This document shows positions 43,193 through 60,600 of a stretch of DNA of 64,000 nt, one piece after another. The DNA is from Candidatus Gottesmanbacteria bacterium UBA5942. Lineage in GTDB: Bacteria > Patescibacteriota > Microgenomatia > UBA10105 > UBA927. How positions within the stretch are numbered: position 1 is the first letter of the stretch; each line of letters starts with the position of its first letter. The stretch covers positions 393 to 64,392 of the forward strand of contig DJCU01000008.1 in assembly GCA_002430725.1 (NCBI GenBank), written 5' to 3'. The position numbers and the translations under genes were made by a program. The notes under the pieces are model-generated. The model worked only from the letters and a program-made list of their open reading frames with translations, ran no database searches and had not been told where the DNA came from.

Positions 43193-44061
43193 AAAAACCT
43201 TTCCGGTGGCGCAAAGTAGGATTTATTGAATATTTTGGTATTGTCTTGTTTCTGTTGGTTGCGGCATTTGTCTACGTTTATGTGTCTCCGAAATCGAGTG
43301 ATATTTTGGTTACCCTGCGTGTCGCTGAAAAAGATTTAATCTGGTTGGATAACGGGTCGCCGCGGGGGATACGGGCAAGCACGATTAAAGAAGGGATGAA
43401 AGAGGTGGATGTATTCGGGAGAGTTATTGCGGAGGTTGTGAAGGTTCGATCGTTCAGTCAGCCCCAGACCGAATCGGTATATCTGAATAAAAAAACCGTC
43501 TATGTCACGCTGAGACTCCGCGCGCAATATAACAAACAAAAAAAACAATACCGGTTTCAAGGAACCGTTTTACAGGCAAGCGATTGGCTGCGCGTAACGA
43601 TCCAGTCAACTATTGTGAACGGTGTTTTGGTGATGGTGCCTGCAAAAGAATCACCTCCTCCTTATTATGTGACCCTGAAGACACAAGTAAAGCTGGAGAA
43701 CCCGTTTCTCTACGAGCCCTTCAACGAAACGACCGGTGTTGATCCGTACGTAGCAGACGCGATAACTGTCGGGGAAAAAGCTACGGATTCTGACGGTTTT
43801 GTACTCGCGGAGGTGTTGGAGAAAACAGTGCGTCCTGCCTCGATTATTGTCGGCGATCAATACGGAAATATTTTTGAGCGGCAGCACCCTCGGAAAGTTG
43901 ATATTTTTCTTACTATCCGTGTCGCAGCACAGGAGATTGATGGTCAGCTGTATTATTTGGATACCATTCCTTTGCAGGTAAACTTGCCAGTGCCACTTTT
44001 TCTCAAAAACATTACCGTAGAGCCGAGGATTGTAGAGATTGTCTCCGTTGAGTCGCCTTAA
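43189..44061 (+). CDS. Hypothetical N-terminally anchored protein
   Basis: TM helix IEYFGIVLFLLVAAFVYVYV. It overlaps the upstream gene by 4 nt. Confidence 0.5.
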   Translation: MKKPFRWRKVGFIEYFGIVLFLLVAAFVYVYVSPKSSDILVTLRVAEKDLIWLDNGSPRGIRASTIKEGMKEVDVFGRVIAEVVKVRSFSQPQTESVYLNKKTVYVTLRLRAQYNKQKKQYRFQGTVLQASDWLRVTIQSTIVNGVLVMVPAKESPPPYYVTLKTQVKLENPFLYEPFNETTGVDPYVADAITVGEKATDSDGFVLAEVLEKTVRPASIIVGDQYGNIFERQHPRKVDIFLTIRVAAQEIDGQLYYLDTIPLQVNLPVPLFLKNITVEPRIVEIVSVESP

Positions 44062-44072
44062 TTCGCAGAATT

Positions 44073-44103
44073 ACACATACGCCGCTCATTCGAGTTTATG
44101 TGT
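44073..44103. terminator. Weak bidirectional terminator candidate between convergent genes (ACACATA-N17-TATGTGT)
   Basis: A 7-bp AT-rich inverted repeat at 44073-44079 / 44097-44103. The right arm overlaps the stop codon of the minus gene. There is no clear U-tract. Confidence 0.2.
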
Positions 44104-45208
44104 GAGGTGTATTAGGGGAGTGTTTTGCGCGCTGATTTTTTATCGCTGCCTGGATGTAAGTGGCAAGCCTCTTGCGAAATACTTGTTTGCTGTATTGTTT
44201 CGCATGCCGATATAGTCGCGTTGATGAAAACTGCATGTGCGATATCCGTTGTATGGCGGTCATCAGGCTTTTTACTGTGTGCTTACGAAAAAATACTCCG
44301 GTAACTCCATCTTTCAGTGTCTCTTTCGGGCCGCCGCCATAGTAAGCGATCACTGGAACACCATGTGCTAATGCTTCCAGTGGTGCAATGCCGAAATCCT
44401 CCTTTTTTGATGGAAAAAGAAATGCGATGGTGCTTTGATACAGTGTTCTGATTTCTTTATCGGATTTGAAACCAAGAAACTGAACGGTCGGGCCAGCAAT
44501 CTCCCGCAGGAATTGTTCGTATCTGGGCTCATTGGTGACACCCACAATGCGAAGCGGGACACCAAGCTTTGTACACGCTTTTACTGCGAGTTCTAGGTGT
44601 TTATCGCGGTCTAGCCGAGATACACAGAGGAAAAACTCCGGTTTACTGCGCTTGGGTAATACCGTAGGGATTTGTACAGGGGGAGGGAGGATGTGCGCGT
44701 GAATACCAAATAGTCTCCGTATCGTTTGTTGCATGTGTCGGGAGCTCGTCAGAATAAACGGAGTATTGGTAATTGCCTGGCGATATTTAGGTGCGATGTA
44801 TTGGTCATAATGAGTCAATCGCATCAAGGGAGTCTTTGGTAGTAGTCCAAATAGTGATTTGGGAATTGTATGGATATACTGAATATGTACACTATGAGGG
44901 GCATTGATCATGTTACACATCAGGGTGCAGGCACTGGAAAGGACCAAATCATAGCGAGATAAGTCTATTTTCCCCCACAGATATGGAGCCATAACCTGCA
45001 TCAGGGAACGGTGGGTAGAGATCAGTGATAGAATTTGCCATCGTGTCTGAAGCACAAATGTTTGTCTGGCTAAAAAATTCTGCACCACCCATTTTTCCGC
45101 AAATGACGTGATGCAAACCGCCTTGGGGAACATTTCAAGCATGGTGAGCGTTACTCGTTCTGCTCCACCGAAATCGTCAAATGTGTCATTTATGATGGCG
45201 ATATTCAT
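44096..45208 (-). CDS. GT4-family GT-B glycosyltransferase
   Basis: EDFGIAPLEALAHGVPVIAYYGGGPKETLKDGVTGVFF is the canonical GT4 E-x7-E/nucleotide-sugar motif. The ORF track starts at 45280; I prefer the internal ATG at 45208 (MNIAIINDTFDDFGGAER), which reduces the overlap with the GT2 gene to 23 nt. Confidence 0.75.
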   Translation of the reverse strand: MNIAIINDTFDDFGGAERVTLTMLEMFPKAVCITSFAEKWVVQNFLARQTFVLQTRWQILSLISTHRSLMQVMAPYLWGKIDLSRYDLVLSSACTLMCNMINAPHSVHIQYIHTIPKSLFGLLPKTPLMRLTHYDQYIAPKYRQAITNTPFILTSSRHMQQTIRRLFGIHAHILPPPVQIPTVLPKRSKPEFFLCVSRLDRDKHLELAVKACTKLGVPLRIVGVTNEPRYEQFLREIAGPTVQFLGFKSDKEIRTLYQSTIAFLFPSKKEDFGIAPLEALAHGVPVIAYYGGGPKETLKDGVTGVFFRKHTVKSLMTAIQRISHMQFSSTRLYRHAKQYSKQVFRKRLATYIQAAIKNQRAKHSPNTPHT

Positions 45209-46106
45209 AGAATTTGACCACATGATACCAAAGTTTACCGATGCGTGAAACGGTAGGAAAGATGATGAGAAGTAGCCCATAATAGAACTGCTGGAGTATA
45301 GGAAATCTCTGTGCCGAGCAAATCTCCTTGATAAACCATACAGGGAAAAATGTTGGGTATGGGGATGCCCGTAAATCTACTTTATACTCATCTATGGTAC
45401 ATGCATCAGAATACCCATTCCAGAACGCTGCAGTCCATAGTGGGCCAAACGAAACTCTTGGGGTTGCATGCGCGATAATGGTAGGGTCAAAATAAATTGT
45501 TTTTCCTGCTTGTACGAGACGAAGGCCGAGCTCTACATCGTCATTTCGGTATCTACGGTGTCGTTCGGGAAATCCAAAGGAAAGAAGGGTAGATCGTCTG
45601 ATACCCATGACTTCACAATCGAGTATTCTACCCCAGAGAAGGGGAACGGCTCGTTTTAGTCCGGGAAAAAAATGATTTAATCCTCGCTGGTAGTAGGCAA
45701 ATTGAGTTGCCGCGTATATATTGTCTTCGTGTGAGTTTGTTATGCGCCCAATAACCGCAGTAAGAGTAGGGTCTCTTTGGAAATGTTTTTGAAACTTTGC
45801 TAGGTACTTGCGGTCTGCAACGCAGTCATCATCCAAGTAAACGACAATATCTCCATGTGCTGTTTTTGCCCCAAGTGTACGTCCATAAGGAATAGAGTGT
45901 TTCGTATTTCTTTTGATGATATGGAGTGTGTTGGTGTGTGACTTGATGACCGCAACCGTTTGTTTGTGAAGTTGGGTTGATCCGTCTACTATGACGACTT
46001 CAATAGGTTGTGTTTTCTGTTTGTGAATTGAGGTAAGTGCCTTTTCTAATAGGTGTGGGCGATCGCTGGTAAGGATAATAACACTGATAGTTGGCGGTTT
46101 ATTCAT
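45186..46106 (-). CDS. GT2 glycosyltransferase
   Basis: ISVIILTSDRPHLLEKALTSIHKQ and VYLDDDCV match the family. Confidence 0.7.
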   Translation of the reverse strand: MNKPPTISVIILTSDRPHLLEKALTSIHKQKTQPIEVVIVDGSTQLHKQTVAVIKSHTNTLHIIKRNTKHSIPYGRTLGAKTAHGDIVVYLDDDCVADRKYLAKFQKHFQRDPTLTAVIGRITNSHEDNIYAATQFAYYQRGLNHFFPGLKRAVPLLWGRILDCEVMGIRRSTLLSFGFPERHRRYRNDDVELGLRLVQAGKTIYFDPTIIAHATPRVSFGPLWTAAFWNGYSDACTIDEYKVDLRASPYPTFFPVWFIKEICSAQRFPILQQFYYGLLLIIFPTVSRIGKLWYHVVKFYEYRHHK

Positions 46107-47116
46107 GGCTCTCGAGCTGATAACAGGGGTTTACCGGTGGTAATAAGCGACACAATATCTGCTCCAACTTTGAGTTTATTTTTTTTGATAGCGTCTTTTG
46201 CGGTGCACACTATCCAACAGTCATTACAGGCATGCGCTGCCGGGAGAAATTGTTGTTTAGGTTTTGAATACCATATTTGTTCAAATGATTGTTTTCGTAA
46301 GTTGCCAATTGGCCAATTTTTAATTTGACACATAAATATATTGGCAAATGGATCCATGTAGAAGAAATTTTCTCCTGCACCACAAGGGAGTGGGCGGCGA
46401 TGGTGTAGCATATATTCATACGAATACCGATTAAACCATGCCTTGCCCCAATTTTTGGGATTGATACTTTTCATCTGTTCAGAAAATAAATAATCAAACT
46501 CTTTTTTGACACTGCGGGGTTTTGGCTGCAACGATACTTTTCCTTTGCCAAAATAGATAGGCGAATCGTGAACGACATTGAGTGAAAAGGCGAGGTTTTC
46601 TTTTTTACAGTGGGCATAGACAGCTTTAAGTTCGTGTTGGTTGATACCCATGAGAGTAAACGTAAGGCCAATATCTTTTACCCCTGCTTCCTTGAGGATT
46701 GCCACTGATTGCATAACTTTTTCAAACGCTTGCGGTATGCCTCGAACTTTTTCATGGGTAGCCCCCCAACCATCGAGAGAAAGTCGAAATGCGATGGCAG
46801 GATCGTTTTTTACGATAGCCGGCGCATATTTTTTGATTTTTGAAGGTAAGAAGCCATTAGTGGTAATAAGTATTCTCGCTTTGGGACAACGTTTTCGGAT
46901 TATTCCGACAATTTCAGGAATATCGTTTCGTAAAAATGGTTCGCCACCGGTGATATCGACCATTTCGAGTGATGTGGGCAATTTTTTATATATTGTCACT
47001 GGCAAAAAATCGAGTCCACGATTTTTCCAGATGTCACAGTGGATACAACGAGAATTACAAAGGAGGGTGACGGAAATAAATGCGCTTTTGGGTAATGGAG
47101 ATTTCGTGTTAACCAT
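46103..47116 (-). CDS. Radical SAM enzyme with a C-terminal Cys-rich (SPASM/twitch-like) auxiliary cluster region
   Basis: The N-terminal CNSRCIHCDIW is a CxxxCxxC motif. GGEPFLRND resembles the SAM-binding GGEP motif. The C-terminal CGAGENFFYMDPFANIFMC ... CNDCWIVC resembles C-x-G-x14-C ... C-x2-C-x4-C. Confidence 0.7.
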   Translation of the reverse strand: MVNTKSPLPKSAFISVTLLCNSRCIHCDIWKNRGLDFLPVTIYKKLPTSLEMVDITGGEPFLRNDIPEIVGIIRKRCPKARILITTNGFLPSKIKKYAPAIVKNDPAIAFRLSLDGWGATHEKVRGIPQAFEKVMQSVAILKEAGVKDIGLTFTLMGINQHELKAVYAHCKKENLAFSLNVVHDSPIYFGKGKVSLQPKPRSVKKEFDYLFSEQMKSINPKNWGKAWFNRYSYEYMLHHRRPLPCGAGENFFYMDPFANIFMCQIKNWPIGNLRKQSFEQIWYSKPKQQFLPAAHACNDCWIVCTAKDAIKKNKLKVGADIVSLITTGKPLLSAREP

Positions 47117-47206: not shown

Positions 47207-47689
47207 CTATCCGCTCTGACGAGCTAATATGTCGAGATAGCGAATGAGTGCCGGATTTTTCTTTTGTATCGGGTCGATGCTGCTTGTGGCTGTCATAATT
47301 TTTATAAGCGGTGTTTTGGGGGTGACGATGCGGATAAGGTGGTGATTTGCCATAAATGTCGCAAAATCAACCTGATGGTCATTAAGGTGTTCTCCGTAGT
47401 GCTTTTGTCGTGGGAGCACCCAGGGAATTTTTCCAAATGAAAGCGCTTGGTATATTGTTGCTGGTCCACCATGGCAAATAATCACTCGTGCGAGCTTCAT
47501 GTATTGCATAAGTTTTCGATGCGGTATGAACGCGTGGGGTTCTATTTCAGGATCGAGAAAGTGTGGTGGTGTATGTCCGTATTGAAATATGATTTTTTCA
47601 TTTGTCGGGCGAATATGAATAAGATGCTCGACCAAAGTCGTCATCCGTTGGAATGGAAATAGTGTGGAGCCAACTGTTATTAGTATCAT
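47207..47689 (-). CDS. Alg13-like (Glyco_tran_28_C) catalytic subunit of a split glycosyltransferase (PssE/EpsF/Cps14G-like)
   Basis: MILITVGSTLFPFQRM...ARVIICHGGPATIYQALSFGKIPWVLPR...HLNDHQVDFA matches the Alg13 consensus vfVTvGtt.Fd...l.vQ.G...AdlvIsHaGaGsile.l..gKp.ivvpr...NHQ.ela. Confidence 0.6.
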   Translation of the reverse strand: MILITVGSTLFPFQRMTTLVEHLIHIRPTNEKIIFQYGHTPPHFLDPEIEPHAFIPHRKLMQYMKLARVIICHGGPATIYQALSFGKIPWVLPRQKHYGEHLNDHQVDFATFMANHHLIRIVTPKTPLIKIMTATSSIDPIQKKNPALIRYLDILARQSG

Positions 47690-48141
47690 AATATCGCTCC
47701 TTTGTACTTCGCGCGCGGATAGAATTTTTTTTGGGTAGGATGCTGCACAAGTATATGATCGACAAATGGTGATACAAGGCGACCAGTAAGGCTTGAAGTT
47801 TTTACGAGGTCAAACACTTCGATAAATACGGTTTTTATGCCAAGGAGTTTACCGATAATAAAAAATGGAGGCGCTATACCGGCGCCGCAGCTAATAAGGA
47901 GCGTTGGGCGTTCGGCTCTCAGGATTTGCCATGCAAGCCTGATGTGACGGATAGCATTATAGATATGCCTCGTTTCCGGGTAATAACCATAATAAACCCG
48001 TTCTTTTTTGAGCAGTGAGGCAACATCTTCACCGGAAAACGTTACCCAAAAATGGTCATACTTACTCCACCAGGGCTTTAGCCGATACATCTGGTATACG
48101 TGACCGCCTTTTGACGTAATAATACCAATGACTGGCTTCAT
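47686..48141 (-). CDS. Alg14-like membrane-associated partner subunit (PssD/EpsE/Cps14F-like)
   Basis: IGIITSKGGHVYQMYRL.., LLISCGAGIAPPFFIIGKLLGIKTVFIEVFDLVKTSSLTGRLV...YPRAKYKG matches the Alg14 consensus (SGGHt.em; NGpG.cvp...iyvES.aRv..lSltGkl; yp.a.y.G). It overlaps its Alg13-like partner by 4 nt. Confidence 0.6.
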   Translation of the reverse strand: MKPVIGIITSKGGHVYQMYRLKPWWSKYDHFWVTFSGEDVASLLKKERVYYGYYPETRHIYNAIRHIRLAWQILRAERPTLLISCGAGIAPPFFIIGKLLGIKTVFIEVFDLVKTSSLTGRLVSPFVDHILVQHPTQKKFYPRAKYKGAIL

Positions 48142-49010
48142 CGATGCCTAGCGTACCCCCAAATTCTGATACATGCAAGTGCTATGTAGAGAAATATATG
48201 ACCAAATGCCTCTTTCCACTTACCATGACGTATAAATCGTATTTCTCTTTGGGAAAAACTTTGTATATGGAGCAGAAGTTTTTTGGCGGGAATAACGCCA
48301 AGGCGTTCTCCGCGGGGGAGAATGTTGTCGAGATAGCCTTCGCTTTCAGCAAACCGCTGATGCTGCCTAAGAAAGCTTTGGAGTGTCGTTCGCTCGTGGT
48401 GGGACGCGATAATAGATCGGTCGAGATAGATGGTAATTCCTGCTCTCCGAAGCCGCAGTCCGAGTTCAATATCTTCGCTTCCACGGTGCATGCGAGGCGA
48501 TAGTCCGCGGTGTTTCCAAAACAATGCCCTTGGCATGGAGGCGTTTTTGCTATCAAAAGATTTGAGCGTGTTTTTTGAAAGCGACATAGCCGCAAGCCAA
48601 TTTTTGTAGTGATCACCCATAATATCAACGTAGACGTTACCGCGGGGGATACTGTGTGTAAACCCTTGAATAACTGCGTTAGGGTGTTTCATGTGTGCGC
48701 GTCTTATACGAGCAAGGAATGTTTTTGAGGCTTTGCAGTCATCGTCAAAAAATACCAGAATATCACCCTTGGCGCGTCTGGCTGCTTCATTATAAAAGGC
48801 TGGATACCCTTTTTTGAGATAGCGGACATATACAATAGGAAGTTTTTTAGCGAGTTTTGCGACAATGTGAGGCGTGTCATCAGTTGAGGCGTCTACGACA
48901 ATTATTTCATCATTCGTTCTACATTGACCAATAAGTGACGTAAGTGCAATTTTAAGAAGCGCTGATCTATTTTTGGTAACGGTAATAATGGAAAGTGTAG
49001 GGAGTTTCAT
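48138..49010 (-). CDS. GT2 glycosyltransferase
   Basis: LSIITVTKNRSALLKIALTSLIGQ and VFFDDDC match the family. Confidence 0.65.
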   Translation of the reverse strand: MKLPTLSIITVTKNRSALLKIALTSLIGQCRTNDEIIVVDASTDDTPHIVAKLAKKLPIVYVRYLKKGYPAFYNEAARRAKGDILVFFDDDCKASKTFLARIRRAHMKHPNAVIQGFTHSIPRGNVYVDIMGDHYKNWLAAMSLSKNTLKSFDSKNASMPRALFWKHRGLSPRMHRGSEDIELGLRLRRAGITIYLDRSIIASHHERTTLQSFLRQHQRFAESEGYLDNILPRGERLGVIPAKKLLLHIQSFSQREIRFIRHGKWKEAFGHIFLYIALACIRIWGYARHR

Positions 49011-51040
49011 TGGGGAAGTATTGTTGGAATTGCGATAATGTCAGGCGCGCGCAGCCCGGGTTCGATGAGATCGGTAAGATCGGATACCGCATTCCTGCAT
49101 CCTATTTTTGCATACGCATTTTGTTCGCATACCGCGAGCGCAGCATTTGCCCTCGCTTCATCCTTGTACCAGAAATAATACGCGCTGGCGAGTTCAAGGT
49201 GATAGAAACCCCATTCGGGAGCGATATTGCGCGCAGTTTCCCATAGGAGAGTAGTGCCTGCTATGTCTTTTTGTACTCTATATACCGAAAGCCCTAAGAA
49301 AAAATAAAATTTTGCTTTACCATCCGTTCCTTCGAGGTGATCAAGCACTGAATAAAGCGCGCCAGTGTTCGTGTAGCGAGAAAACGCATCACTTTGAAGA
49401 TACGGACAGAGTTTGTCCGGTAATAGTGCATGGTCTGATTGAGAAAATTTGCATATTGTGACGCCAATGTGATCTTTTTCATTATTATTCATTAATAGCA
49501 TGAGATATTCTTTGAGATATCCATTGTTATACGGGTGATAGGTGAGTGCTTTCTCATAGTATTTTTTAGCAGCAAGAGAACCGTCTGAATGAGCGAGGGC
49601 GTAATATATATCAGGATCCTGATCATACCACCCAAGAATGATGGGAGTAATTTTTTTCGTTTCTTGAGGGGTAGCTTCATTGATCGCTCGTAAGATATTG
49701 TTTTTGAAATACGGGGCAATCCGAATTGATTGGGTGAGAGTGAGGTTGCCCGAGAATAGGTGTACAGTCGCATAGCTGATTACAAAAGCCGCTAATAGAA
49801 GACAAACAATGATAGACACTATCTCTCTTAACTTTTGCGTTGCTCGTGTCGTATGCGGGATTACATGACCGCTCATTGCCCAGAATAACATCCACATAGA
49901 GAGATTGTTGAGGGCTGTTTCTATTGTGCTGTAGCCAAGAAGGAGTATGCTCGCCCAAGCAAGCGCAACGTGTGACATATTTTTTGATGTTTGTGAGACA
50001 GAAAGTAAAGAAAAAAAGACGGTGCTAAATAGTATTGCGATGGGAAGTGAGCCGATGATACCGTTTTCTGCTAGCGTTTCAAAAGGGAGTGAGTGAGTAT
50101 AGCTCGTGTACGTGTCTTGTGATATCGCATACTGTCGGGAGATAAGATGAAACGTACCAGGCCCATGTCCTAGTATTGGCCTGTCTTGTAGTGCGTTTAT
50201 CGCATCCTCTATATAGGAAAACCGTAATGAATGATTGCTTTCTTTGAGAAAAAAGCGAAGTTGCGGATACCCGCTTGTTAGCTCTAGTTTTTGTTCGTAT
50301 GGTAATAACGACAGCCAAAACATGGCGGAAAAAGAGGTGATACATATTCCGAGTAGCACAAAGGTAAAAAACTGATGAGAGAAGTGTTTTATTTGCGTGG
50401 CGCGAAATATAAAAAATGCTGTTGCAACAATCCAAGATCCTCTTGCCGCACTGAGGATAAGCGCAATAAATACAAGAAGGTTTTGCATATACATTTTGAT
50501 TGTTTTTGGGTGGGCGAGTAGCAGCATTACAGGGAGTAGGGCGATCAGGAGGTATGCGACAGGATGGTGTCCGCTTGTCGCAAGTATTCCGTTATATACA
50601 GGAAGATACTGTGAAAAAACAGGGAATATGAGGAGCAGGAGAAAAATAATGAGTATCGCATTTCCTGCGGTACGTAATCCGTGAGTAAATGTGGGCGTGC
50701 TTTTGTGGTACGAGCGGTCATCTATAGCAAGGAAAAATATGACTGATCCTTCGATAAATCGAACAATAGAAACAAGTGAACTTGCAATACTTCGTGAATT
50801 CGCGGCCGTTATAAGGAATGCAAGTATTGTTGCACCCCACAGCAGTAGTAATGTGCGGGGTAGTACGAAAGCTTTTTTGTTGGTAACTATGCGAAAACCT
50901 ACAAGAAAAAGTAGCGCGATTGCCCAATAAAATTCAAGGAAAAGTGTTTTATCGTGAGGCAAGAAAAATGAAAGAAAGAAGAAAACGAAAAAGGGGCTCA
51001 TAGTGATCGAATTATGATAATTATGTGCGTAGTGTACCAT
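49007..51040 (-). CDS. Wzy_C/O-antigen-ligase-family membrane protein with C-terminal TPR-like repeats (PglL/PilO-type O-oligosaccharyltransferase candidate)
   Basis: The N-terminal 400 aa are multi-TM. VFIALILSAARGSWIVATAFFIF is a Wzy_C-like signature. The C-terminal 250 aa are soluble with TPR-like helical pairs (YYEKALTYHPYNNGYL; LELASAYYFWYKDEARANAALAVCEQ). The gene is divergent from the pilin genes with a 65-nt gap. Confidence 0.6.
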   Translation of the reverse strand: MVHYAHNYHNSITMSPFFVFFFLSFFLPHDKTLFLEFYWAIALLFLVGFRIVTNKKAFVLPRTLLLLWGATILAFLITAANSRSIASSLVSIVRFIEGSVIFFLAIDDRSYHKSTPTFTHGLRTAGNAILIIFLLLLIFPVFSQYLPVYNGILATSGHHPVAYLLIALLPVMLLLAHPKTIKMYMQNLLVFIALILSAARGSWIVATAFFIFRATQIKHFSHQFFTFVLLGICITSFSAMFWLSLLPYEQKLELTSGYPQLRFFLKESNHSLRFSYIEDAINALQDRPILGHGPGTFHLISRQYAISQDTYTSYTHSLPFETLAENGIIGSLPIAILFSTVFFSLLSVSQTSKNMSHVALAWASILLLGYSTIETALNNLSMWMLFWAMSGHVIPHTTRATQKLREIVSIIVCLLLAAFVISYATVHLFSGNLTLTQSIRIAPYFKNNILRAINEATPQETKKITPIILGWYDQDPDIYYALAHSDGSLAAKKYYEKALTYHPYNNGYLKEYLMLLMNNNEKDHIGVTICKFSQSDHALLPDKLCPYLQSDAFSRYTNTGALYSVLDHLEGTDGKAKFYFFLGLSVYRVQKDIAGTTLLWETARNIAPEWGFYHLELASAYYFWYKDEARANAALAVCEQNAYAKIGCRNAVSDLTDLIEPGLRAPDIIAIPTILPQ

Positions 51041-51058
51041 AAGTGAGTGTGTGTCTCA

Positions 51059-51100
51059 TTGTGTTTGTCTTGTTGTTTTGCCATACTAGTTGACGAAAGG
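51059..51100 (+). promoter_or_regulatory. Low-confidence promoter/RBS region for pilin gene 1 (TTGTGT-N17-CATACT; GAAAGG RBS-like)
   Basis: The hexamers are weak (4/6 each). GAAAGG sits at 51095-51100, 8 nt before the ATG at 51109. Confidence 0.25.
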
Positions 51101-51108
51101 TATTTGTG

Positions 51109-51831
51109 ATGAAACGGATGTTGTCTGCCCATCTCGTAAAGTTATCCCGCCGATCACCTCAGGCAGGATGGACACTTGCGGAGCTACTCATAGTAGTTGT
51201 CATTATCGCAATCCTTGCGATTATGTTTTTATTGATAAATTGGAAGCGAAATGTTTTTCGTGCGCAGGATGCACAGCGAAAAACTGATGTTGCTAATATA
51301 CGGCGTGCATTTGAGGAGTACTACAATGACAACAATTGTTATCCCTCTGTTGAGGTGCTCAATAATTGCGAAGGAAATGAACTAAGTCCGTATTTAGAAA
51401 AAATTCCCTGCGATCCCACGACACAGGAGCCATACTTATATCAACCTGACAGTGAAACAAATGTGTGTTTAGGAAATCGTGTGTGTACGAAGCTACAAGA
51501 TTGGGCTGATCCCGATATTACAACCCTTGGTTGTCACGCAGAGGAAGGGTGCGGATGGGGCGCGTATTGGAATTACTGCCTTGCGACTGGCACTACCGTA
51601 ACAGCTCCTGGATTTATTCCTGGCACGACGCCAACACCATCGTTAACTCCTACGCCTGCGTATGATGGGCCGTATGCTTGTCGTCCGGGCACGTTGTCGG
51701 GTGGTCAAGTTGTTAGCTCAGGGACATGTAATAATGTTGGTGATCCAGCTTCTTATGGATGTCCACGATCATTTGCAGAGTCTGATTGTCAGGGGTTATG
51801 CGGAAGCGTCAGTTATTGGTGTGCGCAATAA
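51109..51831 (+). CDS. Type IV pilin/pseudopilin-like protein 1 (prepilin-type N-terminal cleavage/methylation domain)
   Basis: RRSPQAG|WTLAELLIVVVIIAILA has Gly at -1, an aromatic residue at +1, Glu at +5 and a hydrophobic alpha1 helix. The C-terminal region contains Cys pairs. The track start at 51106 is a GTG, and the ATGs at 51109 and 51118 are in frame. Confidence 0.75.
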   Translation: MKRMLSAHLVKLSRRSPQAGWTLAELLIVVVIIAILAIMFLLINWKRNVFRAQDAQRKTDVANIRRAFEEYYNDNNCYPSVEVLNNCEGNELSPYLEKIPCDPTTQEPYLYQPDSETNVCLGNRVCTKLQDWADPDITTLGCHAEEGCGWGAYWNYCLATGTTVTAPGFIPGTTPTPSLTPTPAYDGPYACRPGTLSGGQVVSSGTCNNVGDPASYGCPRSFAESDCQGLCGSVSYWCAQ

Positions 51832-51859
51832 CATGATAATTGGTTATACTATAAAAGAT

Positions 51860-52381
51860 ATGATGAAAAAATTTCGTAACCGCGAAGGGTTTACCCTCAT
51901 GGAGCTTCTGATTGTTATGGTGATATTGTCAGTGCTTGTGGCTATCGCAACAGGTACATACGCATCAAGCTCACGTAGAGGTCGCGACAATCGGAGAAAA
52001 AATGACTTGCGTAATATTACGACCGCTCTCGAGACGTATTATAGTGATAAAGGTCGATATCCTTCCAGTAATGCCGCAGGTGAGATGGTGGGCTGTTGTG
52101 CGAGCCCAGGATGCGGTGATATTCAGGTGTGTAGTTGGGGTGGGCAATTCAAAGACACCAACGGAACACTGTATATGGTGCTTATTCCAGAAGACCCATT
52201 AAGTAGTCAGACATATTATTATCAGGCAGGAACTGATACGTACAGAATTTATGCTAAACTAGAAAATACACTGGATGAAGGTGATTATGTGAACCAGTCA
52301 GGGTACTCGGGTACTGATTGTTCAGTTGATAGTACGGTAGCATGCACGTATGGCATAAGTAGCGGCAATACAACTCCCTAA
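51860..52381 (+). CDS. Type IV pilin-like protein 2
   Basis: MMKKFRNREG|FTLMELLIVMVILSVLVAIA is a classic type IVa prepilin N-terminus. The track ORF 51662-52381 carries a spurious N-terminal extension overlapping pilin 1, so I used the ATG at 51860. Confidence 0.8.
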   Translation: MMKKFRNREGFTLMELLIVMVILSVLVAIATGTYASSSRRGRDNRRKNDLRNITTALETYYSDKGRYPSSNAAGEMVGCCASPGCGDIQVCSWGGQFKDTNGTLYMVLIPEDPLSSQTYYYQAGTDTYRIYAKLENTLDEGDYVNQSGYSGTDCSVDSTVACTYGISSGNTTP

Positions 52382-52392
52382 ATATATCAAAC

Positions 52393-52935
52393 ATGAAATC
52401 AATGATGCTTAATAGTAAACAAAGTAACAAACCATACGGTTTTAGCCTCATAGAATTGTTAGTGGCCATCGCGGTGATTGCGACCATTATTGGGCTTGCC
52501 TTGCCAAACTTCTTGGGAGCGAGAACTCGGGCAAGAGATGCGCGAAGGAAAGGTGAGTTGAGCCAGTTAAAAACAGCGGTGCAACTTTATTACAATGACT
52601 ACAAAGTATTTCCTCCGGCAGCCAATGGCACAGGGGTAACAAATTATATAGCTGGTTGCGGTACTGATGGTGAAACACTTTGTCCTGCTGGGTGTAGTGT
52701 TGATTTTGCCGCGGGTGCGACTACCGGATGCGATACAGTATATATGACAAATTTTCCGGGAGAGTTGGGGACAGGCATGTCGTATTATTCAAGTAGCGCA
52801 GATTTTTGTATCAAAGTGTCATTAGAAAACGTATCTGATGGAGACATAACGTCTTCGCAGGGTCGCTGCAGCGCTGCGTGTGTGAGGGCAGGAAGTGTGT
52901 TGTCCGGAGCAGATTACGCGGTGTGTTCAGAATAA
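52393..52935 (+). CDS. Type IV pilin-like protein 3
   Basis: MKSMMLNSKQSNKPYG|FSLIELLVAIAVIATIIGLALP, with C-terminal Cys pairs (CPAGCSVD...C; CSAAC). Confidence 0.8.
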   Translation: MKSMMLNSKQSNKPYGFSLIELLVAIAVIATIIGLALPNFLGARTRARDARRKGELSQLKTAVQLYYNDYKVFPPAANGTGVTNYIAGCGTDGETLCPAGCSVDFAAGATTGCDTVYMTNFPGELGTGMSYYSSSADFCIKVSLENVSDGDITSSQGRCSAACVRAGSVLSGADYAVCSE

Positions 52936-53168: not shown

Positions 53169-54011
53169 TTAGCGGCACGTTTGGGTAAGCGCTGCGGTGG
53201 TTACCGATGTAGAGCAGTTTGCCACTGCCGGATCTCTACACGTAAGGTTGGTGACGGTATAGCGGGTAGCTGAAACATTGCAATCGGGGATGGTGGTGAG
53301 CCATCCTGTATTTGCCGGATCCTGATTAGTTGAGCCTGATACGCCAGCCTGATAGCTTGCATATCCACTTCCATTAGTACAAGCGGTGCAGGTATAGAGA
53401 CGAGTGTATGCCTTGGTTTCGACTCCATCACAGTTCCAGTCATTGTCGAGGCTTGCATTGATAACATTGGTAAATGAACCGGGAAGATACGATGTTTGTC
53501 CGGGTTTCGCGTTGGCATTGCCATCAGAGCAGTCGGGGGTTGTTGATGTCAGTTTGTTTTTTCGGATATATCCAGTTCCACCGGTTGTGTTACACGCATT
53601 AGGGTTTACGGCATATGTATCACCATCACCGTCATAGACATAGCATTTTGTGTTTGCCCGTATGGTGACATTGCTTTGACTTGCAACAATTATACCGGTC
53701 CCTTCCTGCCCCTGTGTTTCTGGAGTAGAGATACTACCGATAAAAAGTGTGGTAGGCGTTTCAGTTGCGCCACCATTTAATGTCACAGTGACACCTGCCG
53801 GTACGGTAAGTGTTGTACCATTTGTCGCATCATCTGCGCCGACTGAGTAGTCGTATGCTTCAGTTGATTGACCATCAATGCCGCAGGTGGTTGCGGTAAT
53901 TGCTCCGCTTCCCAAAGTCCAATTACACGCTGCTGATACGTGGCCTGCAGTTATATGCAATGATACAAGAAAAAGAACTATTGCACTGATTGTATACGTC
54001 ATTTTTTTCAT
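53169..54011 (-). CDS. Secreted Cys-containing, Thr/Gly-rich protein (signal peptide)
   Basis: MKKMTYTISAIVLFLVSLHITAGHVSA|ACNW is a signal peptide with an AxA site. Last gene of the minus-strand surface operon. Confidence 0.55.
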   Translation of the reverse strand: MKKMTYTISAIVLFLVSLHITAGHVSAACNWTLGSGAITATTCGIDGQSTEAYDYSVGADDATNGTTLTVPAGVTVTLNGGATETPTTLFIGSISTPETQGQEGTGIIVASQSNVTIRANTKCYVYDGDGDTYAVNPNACNTTGGTGYIRKNKLTSTTPDCSDGNANAKPGQTSYLPGSFTNVINASLDNDWNCDGVETKAYTRLYTCTACTNGSGYASYQAGVSGSTNQDPANTGWLTTIPDCNVSATRYTVTNLTCRDPAVANCSTSVTTAALTQTCR

Positions 54012-54565
54012 TTTCTTTCCCTTATAGTAATCGGTATGCTTGTTTCACCTCTATCAGATGTTGCGACTACTGTCGGAATATAGTTATAAAGATATGATTC
54101 CGGAATAACCCATCGTCCTTCCCATATACCACCTAAATCTGTTCCACTTATTCGAGTAAGTTTTACCGGTGTTGTTTTGGTATCAGTACGTACATTTACT
54201 TGCGCGGATGTAACCGGAGAGGTATCTGATATTTTGACAGTAATAATCTGTGTTCCACCAATTGCCGGATCAAGTGGGTCAAAGCTGACCTCGGATATCG
54301 AAGGCCCCGTGCTGCCACCACCACCGACAGAGTAAGTATCTTTACCATGGATTAATTTGGTTGGCGTTGGTGTCGGTGTTGGGATTGGTGTGGGCTCGCC
54401 CTGAGATAGTTCCTGCGTTTGCGTTTCTTGTTGAAGGGTAGATTTATTTTCTATCCAGTACCATGCAAAAGCGGTGGCGCCGATAATAACTGCGATAGCA
54501 ATAATTGCTGAGGTAACTTGACCGTTAGTAGCCTTTTTCGAAGATGATTTCATGGCAGGAAACAC
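54008..54565 (-). CDS. N-terminally anchored protein with Pro-Thr linker and beta-rich domain
   Basis: TM helix AIIAIAVIIGATAFAWYWI, then PTPIPTPTPTPTK, then a C-terminal domain. It overlaps the downstream gene by 4 nt. Confidence 0.55.
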   Translation of the reverse strand: MFPAMKSSSKKATNGQVTSAIIAIAVIIGATAFAWYWIENKSTLQQETQTQELSQGEPTPIPTPTPTPTKLIHGKDTYSVGGGGSTGPSISEVSFDPLDPAIGGTQIITVKISDTSPVTSAQVNVRTDTKTTPVKLTRISGTDLGGIWEGRWVIPESYLYNYIPTVVATSDRGETSIPITIRERK

Positions 54566-54611: not shown

Positions 54612-57600
54612 TTAATTTATGTTTATCCCTTCTAGATTGATACCCTCGAGATTAAAATTGGTAGTTCCATCCGTTGTTGTGAATGAAAAGGGAGTGCCCT
54701 GGGTAGGAGACCACGTGTTTGTGCCCGCTGGATCAATACTGTAGCTACGCCAATAATATGTGGTGCTCACCGTAAGCGGTGTCTGGATAGTGTAGGTTGC
54801 TTGAGTGCCTGATGTATAAGCAGTGCTGGTTTGTGTATTTTGACCGCTCCAGCCAGTTTGCGAGCTGGTTTGATCAAAAGTTTGGCAGTTAGCGGTCATG
54901 CCAACGTTGGTGCATAGCTCAATTTTGTAGCGGAGGTAATCGCCATCTGCGTCTGTTCCTGTTGTTTTGAGATTAAGGGTAAGCGTTCGATTTGTTGCTT
55001 CGTCAGTAGGACTGTCTAACGTTGGGGCTGCTTGTGCTGCGTTCATGGTAAATGATGCGGTTTCCGATGACCATTCTCCTTCAGTGTTGTCGTCATCCCA
55101 AAATGCGAACCGGACATAATAGGTCGTTCCTTGTGACAGTGCACTTCCGGCATAGGAAATATCTGCGCATCGGTTGCCAGCAGTGCAATCGGTAATACTG
55201 GTTCCCGAAGCACCCGAATCCCATAAGACTGATGAAAAATTACTGTTGTCATCGACCTGTATGCGGTATTTGTTCGCGATGTCACCGCTGTCGGTGTCTA
55301 CATATATCGCGGAAAATTCAGGAGTTGTATCGATGACCCCTGTCGGATTTGTTGCCCCTTCAGTAAGAATAGTTGTCGGCACTGACGGTGCGACATTGGT
55401 GCGGTAGTCGAGGGTTACCGATGTTAGTTGTGAAGAAACTGCTTCATCGGAAGAGTGGAGGATAGCGCGGTACTGAAAGTAACGGTTGCCAGTTGAACTG
55501 GTGATCGTGGAATTGCCAGGGGTGGTGAGATAATCACCTGCGCTGCGTAGATCATCTATCCAGATAGTGCGACCCTCCGTATTGTCAGTAAGCCTCAATG
55601 TCATCAGTGTTGTTGCATTGAGGTGTGATACAAGCGGCTCGGTAATATTCCAGTATTCGCGTTGCCACTTAAATACCGATGCGTTTGCGGTAAATCCACC
55701 AGAGGGGAAGGTGCTTCCCGTGTCCCACGATGCGACAGTTGTAGCTCCGGTGCTTGTTGTCATTGCTGTTACTGTACCCTGTGCGATGTACTCAGTGCCG
55801 TCATAGTTTTCGCGGACGATGACTTTGTCACCGAGATAGAGTCCGCTTCCTTTACTCGTGAGACCGTAGCTTGTTGCATCAACAGTGAAGCTGGTATCAT
55901 CGCTGTCAGCAATCAGGTTTCCGCTATCTAGAAGAGCTGCAAAATCGATGGTAATGGGATGTGTTCGTAGTCCCGCTTCGTACGCTTGACGGATTTCATC
56001 TGCGGAGCGGGCAACATTGCTTAATCGTACTTCATCGATATTGCCCGACCAATTTTGGGAGATGCCGTCATAGGTACCGATATAGGTCGTATTACTATTG
56101 GTTGCCATGGTAGCAGGTGCCCCAGTGCCGGATTTGACGAGAACACCATTAATATAGATGTAGTAGGAGGTGCCGGACTTTACCCATGCGACATGACTCC
56201 ATTGATTAAGGGGGAGCGCACCACCGGTAACATCGGATATTGTCCATGCGGCTCCTGATCCAATATAGAACGATACTTGAGCGCCATACTGACCCACATA
56301 GAGAACGTGTTGTTTACTGAATACCCGATAGTGAGTTGAAGCCGCTTGTGCAGTTGGGTATACCCATGCGTCTGCGGTCATATCCGTAAGGTTGTCGACT
56401 TGCGTGATAGATCCGAGGTTTATACTATCGTATGCGCCATTAAATGCTTTTGCGCCTCCGATTTTCCCTGCAGTATGAGTGACTCCCACCGTTATTGCGT
56501 TTCGGTTGTTTCCTGTGGCATCCTGGAGCGAATACGCGGGGATGACGGAAATTTCTTCGAATGTGCCGGTGTGCTGATATTGGGCTACCTGGACGCGCAT
56601 CGGGGTATTGGAAACAGACGAATCAGCGGCAAGAAGCGTTGTCCAGTTGGTGTACGCGCCGCCTCGGATAGAATAGCTTGCGGTGTTAGCGGTGGTGAGG
56701 GTTATTTTAATCTCATATCGAGTATTTGCGGCATAACCGGAACCGTATGGTCCTCCGGTTTGAGCTCCATTTTGGTAGACATAGAACGATCCCGCGTTAA
56801 AATACAACGCGTGGTTTATATTCGTATAAGAGGGTGTTGCAGTTGTGTCTGTCGCAAAGCCGATCATCATGTGGTTGGGGGCAGCGACACTTGCACCGGT
56901 AAGAAACCGGGCATAAATTGTCTGACCTATTGTTCTGGTGTACCGCGCCTGAGACACTATTGCAGAATCCCATGCCGCAGCTGCACCTGCAGTGAGGACA
57001 ATACCGTTATTTTGGGCGATTTTGTTTGCATTGGGATCGGTTTCCGCCCATTTTTGGGCATTAATCGTTGTGCCGGGAAATGTATCATCAGCAATCGGAT
57101 GTTGCTCGTCCAGGTGCCATAAAGCGACTGTATTGTTATCGGGCTGATAGTTTGCAAATCCGGATTCGCCCATGGTAGCAGACATATATGTGCCAGGTTT
57201 GTCTGCAGCAATTGCAAACGGGAGACTCGTTTTGGTGGAAAGGTCGGTAGACGATAGAGTTGTAGATATTGTGTGATCGCGTCCTGCCCGGTATGCTTCG
57301 GCGGCTTCCAGAGCGGTTCCTGCGACATTTCGTATCACCACTTCATCGATTCTGCCGTCAAAAAAGAGTTCCGATGCATAGTTGCTGGCACCGATTTTGA
57401 GGGTGGTCGTCGTGTTTTGTACGTTCGTAAAAGATGTGCTTGCGAATTGACCCTCCAGTCGACCGTTGACATAGAGGTAACACGTATCGCTCGTGTCGAA
57501 CGTGGCATAGATATGAGTCCAAGTACCGGCATTTGGGAGAAAACCTGCGTCACAGCTAATTTGGTTATTGGAAGCATCCCGTACGGCAAATCGGATTCCT

Positions 57601-60600
57601 TCTCCTCCGTTCAAGCGAATAAAGAATGCATTGCCCGCAGCGGTGTAATCAGCTTTTGCCACAATACTATTGTGATCTGAGGCGCTCGGAAGCGTATCGG
57701 GATTGATCCAGACTGATATGGTTCCTTGCGTTGCCCCATCAAGGATTGTGACATCTCCGATATCGACCACGTCGTCCGTCCCGTCAAAATTTCGTGCGGT
57801 TTTTACCGCTCCTTTACCACTCGTTGTGCCGGTTGGAGTCCCATGATTGGCATTGGTACTCAGATCATGGATGTACGCCCCAGTCCCATCCGTTTCATCC
57901 ATCGGCCAGTAGCCTACCGTTGCCGCATCGATGGGGAGCTGACCGGTTTGTATTTTCTGTGCGGCTGTTCCCTCTGTTTTTATCACCGTATCCGTTGATG
58001 GGTGCATCGTATTTGGGTTGGTAGAACCGGCAAGATATTTTTCCCGGATAGTATTTGCCGATAGCGCTGTATCATATATCCTCACTTCATCAATAGAGCC
58101 ACCAAAATAGTTGCCGCGTCCCACCGGACCGACATATGGCGGACAGGCGCCGATATCGAGTTCACCATTGGGAGCAATTTGCGTGCCGGTAATTGTCCCC
58201 GATGCATGGAATTCACCATCAAGATAGGTTGAAACTGTTGTTCCCAATATCGTCATAACACCATGATGCCATTGGTTGTCGGTAACAACGCTGGTGCTTA
58301 CTGGTGCTATGTTGGAAGTTGTGTTGTAGTATTGGCCAACAAACTTTCCATTGGTATCCACACCGATCGAATACAGGGCTCTCGTGCCAGTTGCCGTATC
58401 TTTCCGCACAAGACATTGAAATGCAGATGGTATTGCCGCGATTTTAAACCACGCCTCTACGGTAAGCGGGTCGGCAAGCTGGAGCGATGCATCATCTGCA
58501 ACACTTATGTAACTGCTCGTACCGTTGAATTGTCGTCCGTTGCCAAAAGCGCCATCGGTAATTATTGCGTTGCTTGCAGCTCCATCGTTTACTCCCGTTT
58601 GGTCGCAAGTGTCGTTGGTGCCGCCAGTGCAGGTATTGTCGGCAGTTTCATCCATTGGCCAGTAGGAGACAAGATTGGCTTCTGCAGTGTCAGAAAGATA
58701 CGTGCTGTCGTAGGCGTTGATTGCTGTCTCTCCGGTAATTGGTCGCCATGCTTCCCAGCTGCCGTCATCAGGGGAGCTGTCGGCACCCACCCGGGTTTGC
58801 AGCTCGACATTGCCGGCGTTGTAGTTAGAAAGGATTTCAGATGCCGTAAGAGCGCGTGCGTACACCGACACTGCATCAATCGTTCCGTTCCAATAGAGGC
58901 TCGACCCTCTATTGCCGATATAAAATGGGCCGGTTGAATCGGTTACCTGAGTACCTGTTTTGGTTGTTGATGAGCCCGATAATACGCCATCAACATAAAG
59001 ACTGATAGTTGTGCCGTCATACGTTCCCGTTAGATAATGCCACAGACCGTCATTAACCGGTTTATTACTTTGGGCAACCATATACCCGGTATCCGAAGTG
59101 TTAAGGAGGATAAAGTTTGCGTATCCGGCAACATTAAGCCCCGTTTCAAAGCTATATGAATACTGTCCTGTCGCAGCACCTTTCGCAAGGATCATTTGCC
59201 GTGCAGTATTAGTTGTTTTGACCCACGCGCTGACAGACCAATTTCGTGATCCTATATCCAAATTACTTGTTCCTCCGCATGTTCCGTCTGCGCAGGTTAT
59301 ATAATCTGAAGAGCCGTTAAACATCACTGCTCCCGCTCCCCATCGTTTATTGGCTGCAGTCCAACCTGATCCTGCTGCGGCATCCTGGCTTCCTGTTTCA
59401 CTGAAGCCGGTGAGTGTCCCATCGCACGATGCTCCGCAGGAGCCTGCCGCGTTGTCTGCAGTCGTTCCGCTTGTTTCATTGAAATTCCACTGGGCAACAA
59501 GGCTCGTTGTATCATTGAGCGTTTCACCATCACCGGTGGCGACACCCAGCTCATTCCAAGAGAATGAATTCCATTGCATAAGGGTTGACGTGCCACTGGT
59601 GAGATCAATGACATCAGACGTGTAGGTGCTATATGGTCGTCTACTTGCTGCGAGCATAATTTCTTCGGGCGACTTGGCCACTCCGCTTATGCGGATTTCA
59701 TCAATTTCTCCGTCAAACCAGTTGCCAAGCGTCCCGTTACAGGTTGTATCAGCGTCCGTACCAATGAGTAATCCGCACGTACTGAAGCTCATGGGTGCCG
59801 CATCATTTCCTACGACCGTATCAACAATGCCATTGATGTAGAGTAATATGACGGAGCCTGATCGTGTTACCGCAATATGTTGCCAGTCTGTGGTAATTGT
59901 GCGAGTTGATGCAAGCCGGACGAGGGCGTTGGTTGCAACGTTGATGACGTTGGATGTGATATGAATATAGAGTTCGTTACCTCCACTGCCGTCTGTTGCC
60001 ATGAAGATCATCTCGTCCGTTGTCGTGTCAGGCTTGACCCAGGCTTCGTAGGTAAAGTCGCCTGTGGGAAGCGATGGGCTGCTTACCTCGATGTAATCAC
60101 TTGTGCCATTAAATGTGCGCGATGCTGATCCCACTTTCGGAGTGCTGGTGTCGATGGTTGTGCCGGTTGCCACTCCGTGGCGTCCGTTGCCGCTTGTATC
60201 ACACATGTCTTGACCTCCAGAGCAACTATTGTCAGCCGATTCATCAAGGTGCCAAAGCGCAATAGTATTGCTGTCTGCAACGTGCGGTTGGTTGGGGGTT
60301 TCTAAAACAGGTGACGACCCTGAACCTGTGTCTTTTAGTCTGTTCATTTGTCCGGTCGCAAATTCGCTCGATGTATCGTGGACAACCGTGGGGTCTATGG
60401 TAATGGGGTACGCTCGTGCAGGATCAGATAGCCATGATGGATCCATGTCGAGCACGAGCATATAGGAGCGCTCCGCTATTCCTGATCCTGCTGGTTTTGT
60501 GACAGGTCCGAGAAGTTGTTGTGATATATAAGTATACTTATTTATATCTTTTGATATTTTTTTGTAGGCACTCGCATTGTCTGTCAGGCGGTATCTGATG

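Follow-up and report, generated by a model that had tools for sequence, protein, structure and literature searches.

We analyzed a 64,000-nucleotide (nt) stretch of contig DJCU01000008.1 from Candidatus Gottesmanbacteria bacterium UBA5942 (hereafter the window, whose positions are used throughout) and studied in it a gene for a Wzy_C-family membrane protein with a TPR-like C-terminal tail, here called WzyC_TPR, together with the three prepilin-type genes beside it. An initial annotation of this DNA had taken the membrane protein for a candidate PglL/PilO-type O-oligosaccharyltransferase (O-OTase) and had predicted glycosylated pili. The four genes are as follows (aa, amino acids).

49007-51040, minus strand: WzyC_TPR, 677 aa, Pfam Wzy_C
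51106-51831, plus strand: pilin1, 240-241 aa, prepilin-type
about 51860-52381, plus strand: pilin2, 173 aa, prepilin-type
52393-52935, plus strand: pilin3, 180 aa, prepilin-type

The Wzy_C gene lies divergent from three prepilin-type genes where that annotation had placed them, and the 65-nt gap it had reported between the start codons of WzyC_TPR and pilin1 corresponds to 51041-51105. None of the locus genes is a chance open reading frame (ORF), because orthologues are conserved in other assemblies. The closest named relative of the locus is a Candidatus Gottesmanbacteria metagenome-assembled genome (MAG), with 61% identity for WzyC_TPR and 92% for pilin1, and a 23%-identical member of the WzyC_TPR family sits in a Chisholmbacteria MAG.

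The membrane core of WzyC_TPR matched Pfam Wzy_C (PF04932) over residues 188-332 (E = 2.8e-15; 56.9 bits against a cut-off of 31.7), and this was the sole Pfam family reported at E ≤ 10, whether the entire protein or just the tail was searched. A phmmer search of PDB with the single WzyC_TPR sequence gave no match. A profile built from six family sequences matched one solved protein, the O-antigen ligase WaaL of Cupriavidus metallidurans (7TPG; E = 4.6e-5), and the alignment paired the 'ARGAW', 'R..Y', and 'HS...E.G..G' segments of the two. The AlphaFold (AF2) model of WzyC_TPR (predicted local distance difference test score [pLDDT], 76.5; predicted template modeling score, 0.74) has a WaaL-like core of 12-13 helices, and Foldseek of this model against PDB returned WaaL (7tpg_B) first, the SEDS proteins FtsW and RodA next, and then TPR proteins. 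The modeled catalytic loop comprises 81 residues (247-327), and helix 407-428 is an additional, thirteenth helix.

We then counted residue conservation in an alignment of 55 members of the WzyC_TPR family. R200 is kept in 53 of the 55, R273 in all, and H316 in 54; K266, the segment G291xGPGTF297, S301, and E325 are likewise invariant or nearly so. The two arginines and the histidine line up with motif residues of WaaL 7TPG. An Arg/Arg/His set is reported to be important in Escherichia coli WaaL (R215/R288/H338) and conserved in PglL (R224/R298/H349) (PMC3643930), and the His is needed in TfpM (PMC9829042). Taken together, profile and fold place WzyC_TPR in the Wzy_C superfamily with the WaaL ligase as its nearest solved relative, so that among the WaaL, Wzy, and PglL alternatives raised in the initial annotation, the closest solved protein is a ligase and not a polymerase. 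WzyC_TPR and WaaL are ~15% identical; WaaL differs in having neither a TPR tail nor the thirteenth helix, and its acceptor is lipid A-core.

Beyond the core, the model shows an all-helical repeat of ~250 aa (residues ~430-677). Pfam TPR models left this tail unmatched even at E ≤ 10; profile searches gave weak matches to the TPR proteins MamA and CTPR (designed TPRs) (E of 0.016-0.1), and Foldseek matched the tail to CTPR, MamA, and OGT-TPR. These weak profile matches and the fold matches of the modeled tail support the label "TPR-like." Four helices follow the catalytic loop, and therefore, by the model and hydropathy, the tail would exit on the loop's side of the membrane. A predicted extracytoplasmic location is also consistent with two tail cysteines, C638 and C648, that are invariant across the 55 family members. 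The family search yielded 607 clusters at E ≤ 1e-3 and 140 at E ≤ 1e-30. Most family clusters among the matches listed are 620-710 aa long and match WzyC_TPR end to end, and the tail is thus part of the family. The family is apparently widespread in Microgenomates-type bacteria of the candidate phyla radiation (CPR) and apparently uncharacterized.

We next compared WzyC_TPR with known enzymes. Its Wzy_C core and predicted external TPR-like tail agree with the architecture described for the O-OTases PglL and WsfB (PMC2943079), as the initial annotation had held for PglL. The predicted S-layer O-OTase WsfB of Paenibacillus alvei has, like PglL, a Wzy_C domain and a C-terminal TPR motif, whereas WsaB of Geobacillus stearothermophilus has no TPR, and a small TPR protein, WsaA, is encoded adjacent to it (PMC2943079). 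WsfB would be the closest analogue of WzyC_TPR: the likeness extends to a monoderm host, Wzy_C with a C-terminal TPR, a surface-glycan (slg-type) cluster, and transfer of a lipid-carrier glycan on the outside (PMC2943079). The two are likened by described architecture; WsfB acts on an S-layer protein, and no gene for such a protein was recognized in the window. The thirteenth helix and the Cys-pair tail unseen by Pfam TPR models are features of the CPR family that differ from WsfB.

PglL/PglO of Neisseria and the ComP-specific PglS of Acinetobacter baylyi resemble WzyC_TPR in the Wzy_C domain, the Arg/Arg/His residues, a PxxGxG segment, and a large C-terminal periplasmic domain, which in PglS is larger and has been discussed as serving sequon recognition (PMC9829042). 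PglL-type enzymes modify internal Ser residues in flexible Ala/Pro/Ser-rich regions (PMC3643930); such sites of PglL and PglS resemble linkers of pilin1 and of p185, a protein encoded just beyond the pilins. These enzymes differ from WzyC_TPR in length (520-620 versus 677 aa), in that WzyC_TPR has neither PglL_A nor Wzy_C_2 and a monoderm host, and in gene arrangement, since pglS adjoins comP co-oriented whereas WzyC_TPR is divergent from the pilins. TfpO/PilO (Pseudomonas aeruginosa 1244, Acinetobacter) and TfpM (Moraxellaceae) are also Wzy_C enzymes encoded beside pilin genes. They measure 420-470 aa, their genes come directly after the pilin gene, and the residue they modify is a C-terminal Ser/Thr (PMC9829042); they have no tail, whereas WzyC_TPR has one of ~250 aa and is encoded divergently and upstream of pilin1. 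C-terminal glycosylation of the TfpO/TfpM class was ruled out by size, gene order, and the pilin C termini. The PglL/PilO-type designation of the initial annotation thus held in part: the Wzy_C-plus-tail architecture stood, with WaaL nearest, while PglL_A and Wzy_C_2 are missing and all TfpO/PilO/TfpM hallmarks fail. The results do not support placing WzyC_TPR in PglL proper; that it acts in a PglL/WsfB-like way is plausible. The Wzy_C domain occurs also in the polymerase MagA (PMC3485256) and in TacL, the pneumococcal lipoteichoic acid (LTA) ligase, which serves a glycolipid acceptor in a monoderm (PMC5727136). Both share with WzyC_TPR the superfamily, an undecaprenyl pyrophosphate (Und-PP)-linked donor, and action outside the membrane; they differ in having ~400 aa, no external repeat domain, and a growing glycan chain or a glycolipid as acceptor.

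To the left of WzyC_TPR lies a block of glycan genes followed by a second Wzy_C gene, WzyC_2, as listed here (GT, glycosyltransferase).

48138-49010, minus strand: GT2 (Pfam)
47686-48141, minus strand: PssD/Cps14F/Alg14-like (Pfam; NCBIfam PssD, 117 bits against a cut-off of 110)
47207-47689, minus strand: PssE/Cps14G/Alg13-like (Pfam; NCBIfam PssE, 71.6 bits, below cut-off)
46103-47116, minus strand: radical-SAM/SPASM enzyme (Pfam)
45186-46106, minus strand: second GT2 (Pfam)
44096-45280, minus strand: GT4 (Pfam)
43189-44061, plus strand: DUF4330-like single-pass protein (Pfam DUF4330, E = 1.7e-4), translationally coupled to WzyC_2
41711-43192, plus strand: WzyC_2, second Wzy_C paralogue, 493 aa (Pfam Wzy_C, E = 3e-10, 40.5 bits)

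Pfam and NCBIfam confirmed both the glycan block and the second Wzy_C gene of the initial annotation, which had WzyC_TPR downstream of the block; it is instead the 5′-most gene of this minus-strand block. Stop and start codons overlap at 49007-49010, 48138-48141, 47686-47689, and 46103-46106, and WzyC_TPR heads a glycan operon to which it is translationally coupled. Farther left are sugar-nucleotide genes: two DegT aminotransferases, one of them close to dTDP-4-amino-4,6-dideoxygalactose transaminase, a hexapeptide acetyltransferase, a methyltransferase, and an RmlC-like protein.

WzyC_2 aligned with the WzyC_TPR family in hhalign at 99% probability and 11% identity, and it had no PDB match at E ≤ 1. 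Judged by Pfam scores (56.9 versus 40.5 bits) and by a PDB match versus none, the TPR-bearing paralogue is the one closer to WaaL. The catalytic His was considered as a separator of the two paralogues and is nondecisive, being kept in 54 of 55 sequences of one and 7 of 8 of the other.

Gene context was compared across 25 fetched loci (numbered with the prefix L); a related-locus search with the six-sequence alignment gave 4 genome and 7 metagenome loci. Seven loci match the order of the window as far as their contigs reach (L001, L002, L005, L006 = L017, L007, L011, and L013; L005 and L011 are short contigs). This shared order runs from a giant LamG gene through p185, p280, the three pilins, WzyC_TPR, GT2, PssD, PssE, the radical-SAM gene, GT2, GT4, and DUF4330 to WzyC_2; p185 and p280 were not found in L007. 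The gap between WzyC_TPR and pilin1 is 25-107 nt in the orthologous loci. Within the syntenic block, identities are 57-92% for the pilins (pilin1, 70-92%; pilin2, 63-90%; pilin3, 57-73%), 76-90% for the radical-SAM enzyme, and 65-91% for PssD. The fastest-evolving genes are WzyC_TPR (25-61%) and WzyC_2 (32-59%), a divergence reminiscent of serotype-like diversification among glycan-handling enzymes. As synteny covers the entire block, the eight pilin-adjacent loci, the window included, amount to one evolutionary observation. We note that L007 (CAZNKB010000003.1), with a complete Gottesmanbacteria-type block (pilins 64-75% and radical-SAM enzyme 82% identical), was deposited as "uncultured Gammaproteobacteria bacterium" and is probably a misbinned or mislabeled MAG.

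The linkage to glycan genes extends further. The full glycan gene order is kept in L001, L002, L005, L006, L007, L013, and L014, and GT2-PssD-PssE directly follow WzyC_TPR in L008, L010, L011, and L015; L010, L011, and L015 also have a radical-SAM homologue farther on, and in L008 none was detected. Every sufficiently long locus carries exactly two Wzy_C paralogues, WzyC_2 co-occurring with WzyC_TPR in L001, L002, L003/4, L006, L007, L008, L012, L013, L014, and L019. The pilins, on the other hand, are absent from the available flanks of WzyC_TPR in L003/L004/L019, L008, L010, L014, L016, and L021. For instance, L010 has dnaA-dnaN upstream of WzyC_TPR and GT2-PssD-PssE-PMT-radical SAM downstream, and L003/L004/L019 have a G5/3D protein upstream, with radical-SAM, GT4, GT2, and WzyC_2-DUF4330 genes nearby. 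Conversely, L024/L025 carry the pilin cassette in order (59-64% identity; pilin1, 59%) with no Wzy_C neighbor, next to genes for an AAA_14/DUF4143 protein, a Peptidase_S74 protein, and AbiEii. Whether the pilins are conserved neighbors, a check named in the initial annotation, therefore has a split answer: they are so in the seven syntenic loci and not so in distant family members or at L024/L025. Since the glycan operon, and not the pilins, stays linked across the range of the family, adjacency is weak evidence for a pilin-specific function. Pilin adjacency is clade specific, and the conserved partner of WzyC_TPR is the glycan pathway.

Some further features of these loci were recorded. The radical-SAM/SPASM enzyme at 46103-47116 is among the best-conserved products of the operon, with homologues in most related loci, including the distant L003 and L010; it matched no specific NCBIfam family above its cut-off and might act either in modifying sugars or in maturing a peptide. 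In L008 (Chisholmbacteria), a Bac_transf phosphoglycosyltransferase gene of PglC/WbaP type (9171-9809; E = 5.9e-55) overlaps the WzyC_TPR start codon. L024, from a more distant Patescibacterium, encodes at 3420-5276, on the minus strand, a polytopic protein of 618 aa whose tail is a bona fide TPR (TPR_11, E = 1.7e-7); we considered this protein as a diverged WzyC_TPR orthologue and rejected it (hhalign probability, 3.9%; no Wzy_C match). The AbiEii, Peptidase_S74, and AAA_14/DUF4143 genes between this protein and the pilins (5305-9894) look like an insertion, and ComEA and ComEC lie 8-10 kb downstream of the L024 pilins.

Just beyond the pilins, the window encodes two small surface proteins, neither of which matched a Pfam family.

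53169-54011, minus strand: p280, secreted protein with signal peptide, Cys-rich, 'D.D.DGY' motif
54008-54565, minus strand: p185, membrane anchor, conserved PTPTPTPT linker, beta domain

The p185 alignment has an invariant PTP..P linker, and the candidate acceptor stretch is PTPIPTPTPTPTK. In L016 (2344-6150), p185, p280, and WzyC_TPR form a same-strand run with 3-nt gaps and pilins are absent; in L014 (1-3428), p280 is directly upstream of WzyC_TPR and p185 is divergent. Compared with the arrangement in L016, the window looks as if the pilin cassette had been inserted between p280 and WzyC_TPR. As partners or substrates, p185 and p280 may be at least as good candidates as the pilins.

The three pilin-like products have prepilin-type leaders (G/WTLAE in pilin1, G/FTLME in pilin2, and G/FSLIE in pilin3, the slash marking the leader end) followed by a hydrophobic helix. 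Their N_methyl scores of 22-35 bits are above cut-off, and weak GspG/PilA matches were obtained too: pilin1 matched N_methyl and T2SSG/GspG, pilin2 matched N_methyl (34.8 bits) and GspG (49 bits), and pilin3 matched N_methyl (28 bits). With this leader, a Glu at +5, the alpha1 helix, and the head fold of pilin1, the three neighbors are of the type IV pilin/pseudopilin class. The AF2 model of pilin1 (pLDDT, 86.3) shows a GspG-like head and an alpha1 helix of 53 residues, and Foldseek matched it to GspG, PulG, and Clostridioides difficile PilA1. A Pro/Thr/Ser-rich linker, IPGTTPTPSLTPTPA, occupies residues 171-185 of the 241-aa ORF (about 170-184 of the 240-aa model). It is the only low-confidence internal segment of the model (pLDDT 53-70, falling below 50 at residues 176-178), and the candidate acceptor stretch in pilin1 is TTPTPSLTPTPAY. 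The linker tethers a C-terminal mini-domain of ~55 aa with six conserved Cys, four of them invariant, which gave no match in PDB and would suit a tip or adhesin role. At least 93 pilin1 homologue clusters occur across Patescibacteria, and in all of them a long alpha1 and a small head are joined by a Pro/Thr/Ser linker, variable in length and sequence, to the 6-Cys mini-domain.

With regard to glycosylation sites, the initial annotation had suggested looking for exposed Ser/Thr acceptors in the C-terminal regions of the pilins. The P/T/S linker inside pilin1 is in keeping with such sites, and the C termini are not: the proteins end in ...WCAQ, ...NTTP (within ...YGISSGNTTP of pilin2), and ...VCSE (within the invariant ...YAVCSE of pilin3), that is, in Q, P, and E, and these ends are conserved in orthologues. 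A linker that is flexible and exposed in the pilin1 model would suit internal O-glycosylation of the PglL type. It would be equally suited to PMT-type O-mannosylation, and the window encodes a PMT_2 protein. Candidate acceptor linkers are present in pilin1, p185, and a 798-aa protein. Glycosylation of the adjacent pilins is thus possible, with the pilins as candidate targets.

Pilus assembly families (PilB/C/D/M/N/O) were not found by Pfam in the scanned window ORFs of ≥120 aa, a scan that covered all but the two giant ORFs at 99-12740 (4213 aa) and 54612-61181 (2189 aa; orthologues carry LamG domains). GC skew is +0.08 to +0.25 in nearly all 2-kb bins of the window, independent of gene strand, and falls to about 0 only at 58-60 kb, within the LamG giant gene.

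We also examined the spacer between WzyC_TPR and pilin1. It holds a pilin-facing, promoter-like element at 51059-51087 on the plus strand, composed of a -35 hexamer TTGTGT (51059-51064), a 17-nt spacer, and TGc with a -10 hexamer CATACT (51082-51087), and followed by a ribosome-binding site, GAAAGG (51095-51100). The only invariant columns in the spacer alignment of the eight syntenic loci are those of this element, and each pilin1 orthologue has the motif ahead of it. The pilin1 gene of L024, which has no Wzy_C gene next to it, is preceded by an identical -10, CATACTAG, and by TTGCAA 17 nt before that. The element is below the threshold of a consensus promoter scanner, which found nothing above background in this region. 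From this pattern of conservation, the element is best read as a pilin promoter; a shared operator or RNA element was considered for the ~30-nt motif and rejected on the same grounds. Since the motif persists without a Wzy_C gene, it provides no evidence for co-regulation of the divergent units. An ATG inside the motif was rejected as the WzyC_TPR start (P0004, 'MAKRFWKHNG...'), because the window has it out of frame, at the head of an ORF of only 27 codons. Gene callers in some assemblies took that ATG, producing spurious N-terminal extensions such as P0004.

We propose, tentatively and with a confidence that stops just short of even, that WzyC_TPR is the terminal extracytoplasmic ligase of an Und-PP-linked surface-glycan pathway and that its acceptor is most likely one or more surface proteins. 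GT2, the bipartite PssD/PssE, the second GT2, and GT4, together with the sugar-nucleotide genes, would build a lipid-linked glycan in the cytoplasm; after flipping, WzyC_2 with its DUF4330 partner would probably polymerize it; and WzyC_TPR would transfer it en bloc to the acceptor by means of the WaaL/PglL-type Arg-Arg-His loop. The two-paralogue pattern fits a Wzx/Wzy pathway with one polymerase and one ligase, and hence we assigned the ligase role to the TPR-bearing, WaaL-nearer paralogue. Patescibacteria are described as monoderm (PMC11665869), and lipid A-core is therefore not an expected acceptor of a WaaL-like enzyme. The expected lack of lipid A-core and the predicted external, disulfide-bonded TPR-like domain led us to regard surface protein(s) as the most likely acceptor. 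WzyC_TPR would in this case be a WsfB/PglL-like O-OTase with several possible targets, for which exposed Pro/Thr/Ser linkers are plausible sites.

Several results weigh against this proposal. WzyC_TPR had no Pfam match to PglL_A or Wzy_C_2 at E ≤ 10 and no match in an NCBIfam scan, and sequence cannot separate O-OTases from lipid ligases and polymerases within Wzy_C (PMC3643930). The fast divergence of both Wzy_C genes is typical of glycan-specific polymerases as well as of ligases. Conservation of the tail does not exceed that of the membrane core (25-27% identity); this might not be expected of a domain that binds the highly conserved pilins, and tail conservation was rejected as a sign of such binding. 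No PglC/WbaP-type initiating transferase was found by motif or Pfam in the 64-kb window, nor was a flippase recognized there. Finally, the window encodes other GT-C-like candidates, namely PMT_2 (26027-27700) and YfhO (24028-26058), and its region 13565-39005 is dense in polytopic GT-C-like proteins (an NPCBM-tailed one at 16006-17856 and six 9-13-helix proteins without a Pfam family), interspersed with GtrB-like GT2 genes and a PIG-L deacetylase. PMT_2, YfhO, and the approximately seven others could be the real protein O-glycosyltransferases.

Three other readings were weighed against the ligase proposal. WzyC_TPR might instead be a Wzy-type repeat-unit polymerase whose tail is a scaffold or chain-length module, with WzyC_2 or another enzyme performing the ligation. 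The presence of Wzy_C in the bona fide polymerase MagA (PMC3485256) agrees with this, as do the standing of WzyC_TPR as the most divergent gene of the cluster (usual for Wzy genes), the PssD/PssE genes of the operon, which belong to Wzy-dependent pathways, and the fact that the catalytic residues are common to both paralogues and do not discriminate between them. However, the nearest solved relative of WzyC_TPR is a ligase and WzyC_2 is the more aberrant protein; large external TPR domains are on record for O-OTases, whereas we came across none in a polymerase; and WzyC_2 is coupled to a dedicated single-pass protein, much as a polymerase might be to its co-polymerase. We consider this reading unlikely. 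A ligase that serves a nonprotein acceptor, either a membrane glycolipid (as for TacL, yielding a polymer of the lipoteichoic acid type) or another envelope polymer, with the tail docking envelope machinery, would accord with the WaaL-like fold, with TacL serving a glycolipid in monoderms (PMC5727136), and with the strongest conserved linkage being to glycan genes and to no protein gene. We judge it quite improbable, since TacL and WaaL are ~400 aa without an extra domain, TPR domains typically bind proteins, and the recurrent, rearranged adjacency to p185/p280 hints at a protein partner.

The remaining reading, the one closest to the initial annotation, makes WzyC_TPR a pilin-dedicated O-OTase of the TfpO/PglS kind, with the adjacent pilins as cognate substrates and glycosylated pili. 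It draws on the divergent placement at 65 nt (25-107 nt in orthologous loci) from a three-pilin cassette in eight loci, on the adjacency to pilins of 21 of 31 predicted pglL homologues (PMC3643930), and on the exposed P/T/S linker of pilin1 and the Ser/Thr-rich C-terminal tail of pilin2. Those eight loci are, however, a single syntenic block that extends from the LamG giant gene to WzyC_2; no pilin is present in the available flanks of the six other loci or locus groups named above, and the L024/L025 cassette has no Wzy_C neighbor. Known pilin-specific OTases are encoded downstream and co-oriented and act on a C-terminal Ser/Thr, whereas WzyC_TPR points away from the pilins, whose last residues are Q, P, and E. 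The conserved spacer motif is best read as a pilin promoter, kept without Wzy_C, and not as a shared operator, and the pilins are 57-92% identical across loci against 25-61% for the enzyme. A link between WzyC_TPR and the pilins is therefore circumstantial, and we think a pilin-dedicated enzyme very unlikely.

The architecture and logic of the ligase proposal are already known from WsfB and PglL, and the locus has an ordinary surface-glycan layout, with transferases and a pair of Wzy_C paralogues. In Patescibacteria, type IV pili play a central part in host attachment and in feeding on the host. To our knowledge, there is no experimental protein glycosylation in Patescibacteria, and the topic is essentially unexplored. 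In cultivated Saccharibacteria, pilin O-glycosylation has been predicted in silico only (PMC11623550). Bioconjugate vaccines are a practical reason for interest in broad-specificity O-OTases (PMC9829042). A candidate enzyme family together with candidate acceptor sites provides a concrete, testable enzyme-substrate hypothesis. In its broadest form, which we offer as a possibility that is probably not the case, the family of ~650-700-aa proteins with a Wzy_C core and a Cys-paired tail would be a general protein O-OTase of Microgenomates-type CPR bacteria, decorating Pro/Thr/Ser linkers, including those of pilin1 and p185, with strain-variable glycans. If this is true, the pili and the surface of these ultra-small episymbionts would be glycan coated and antigenically diversified.

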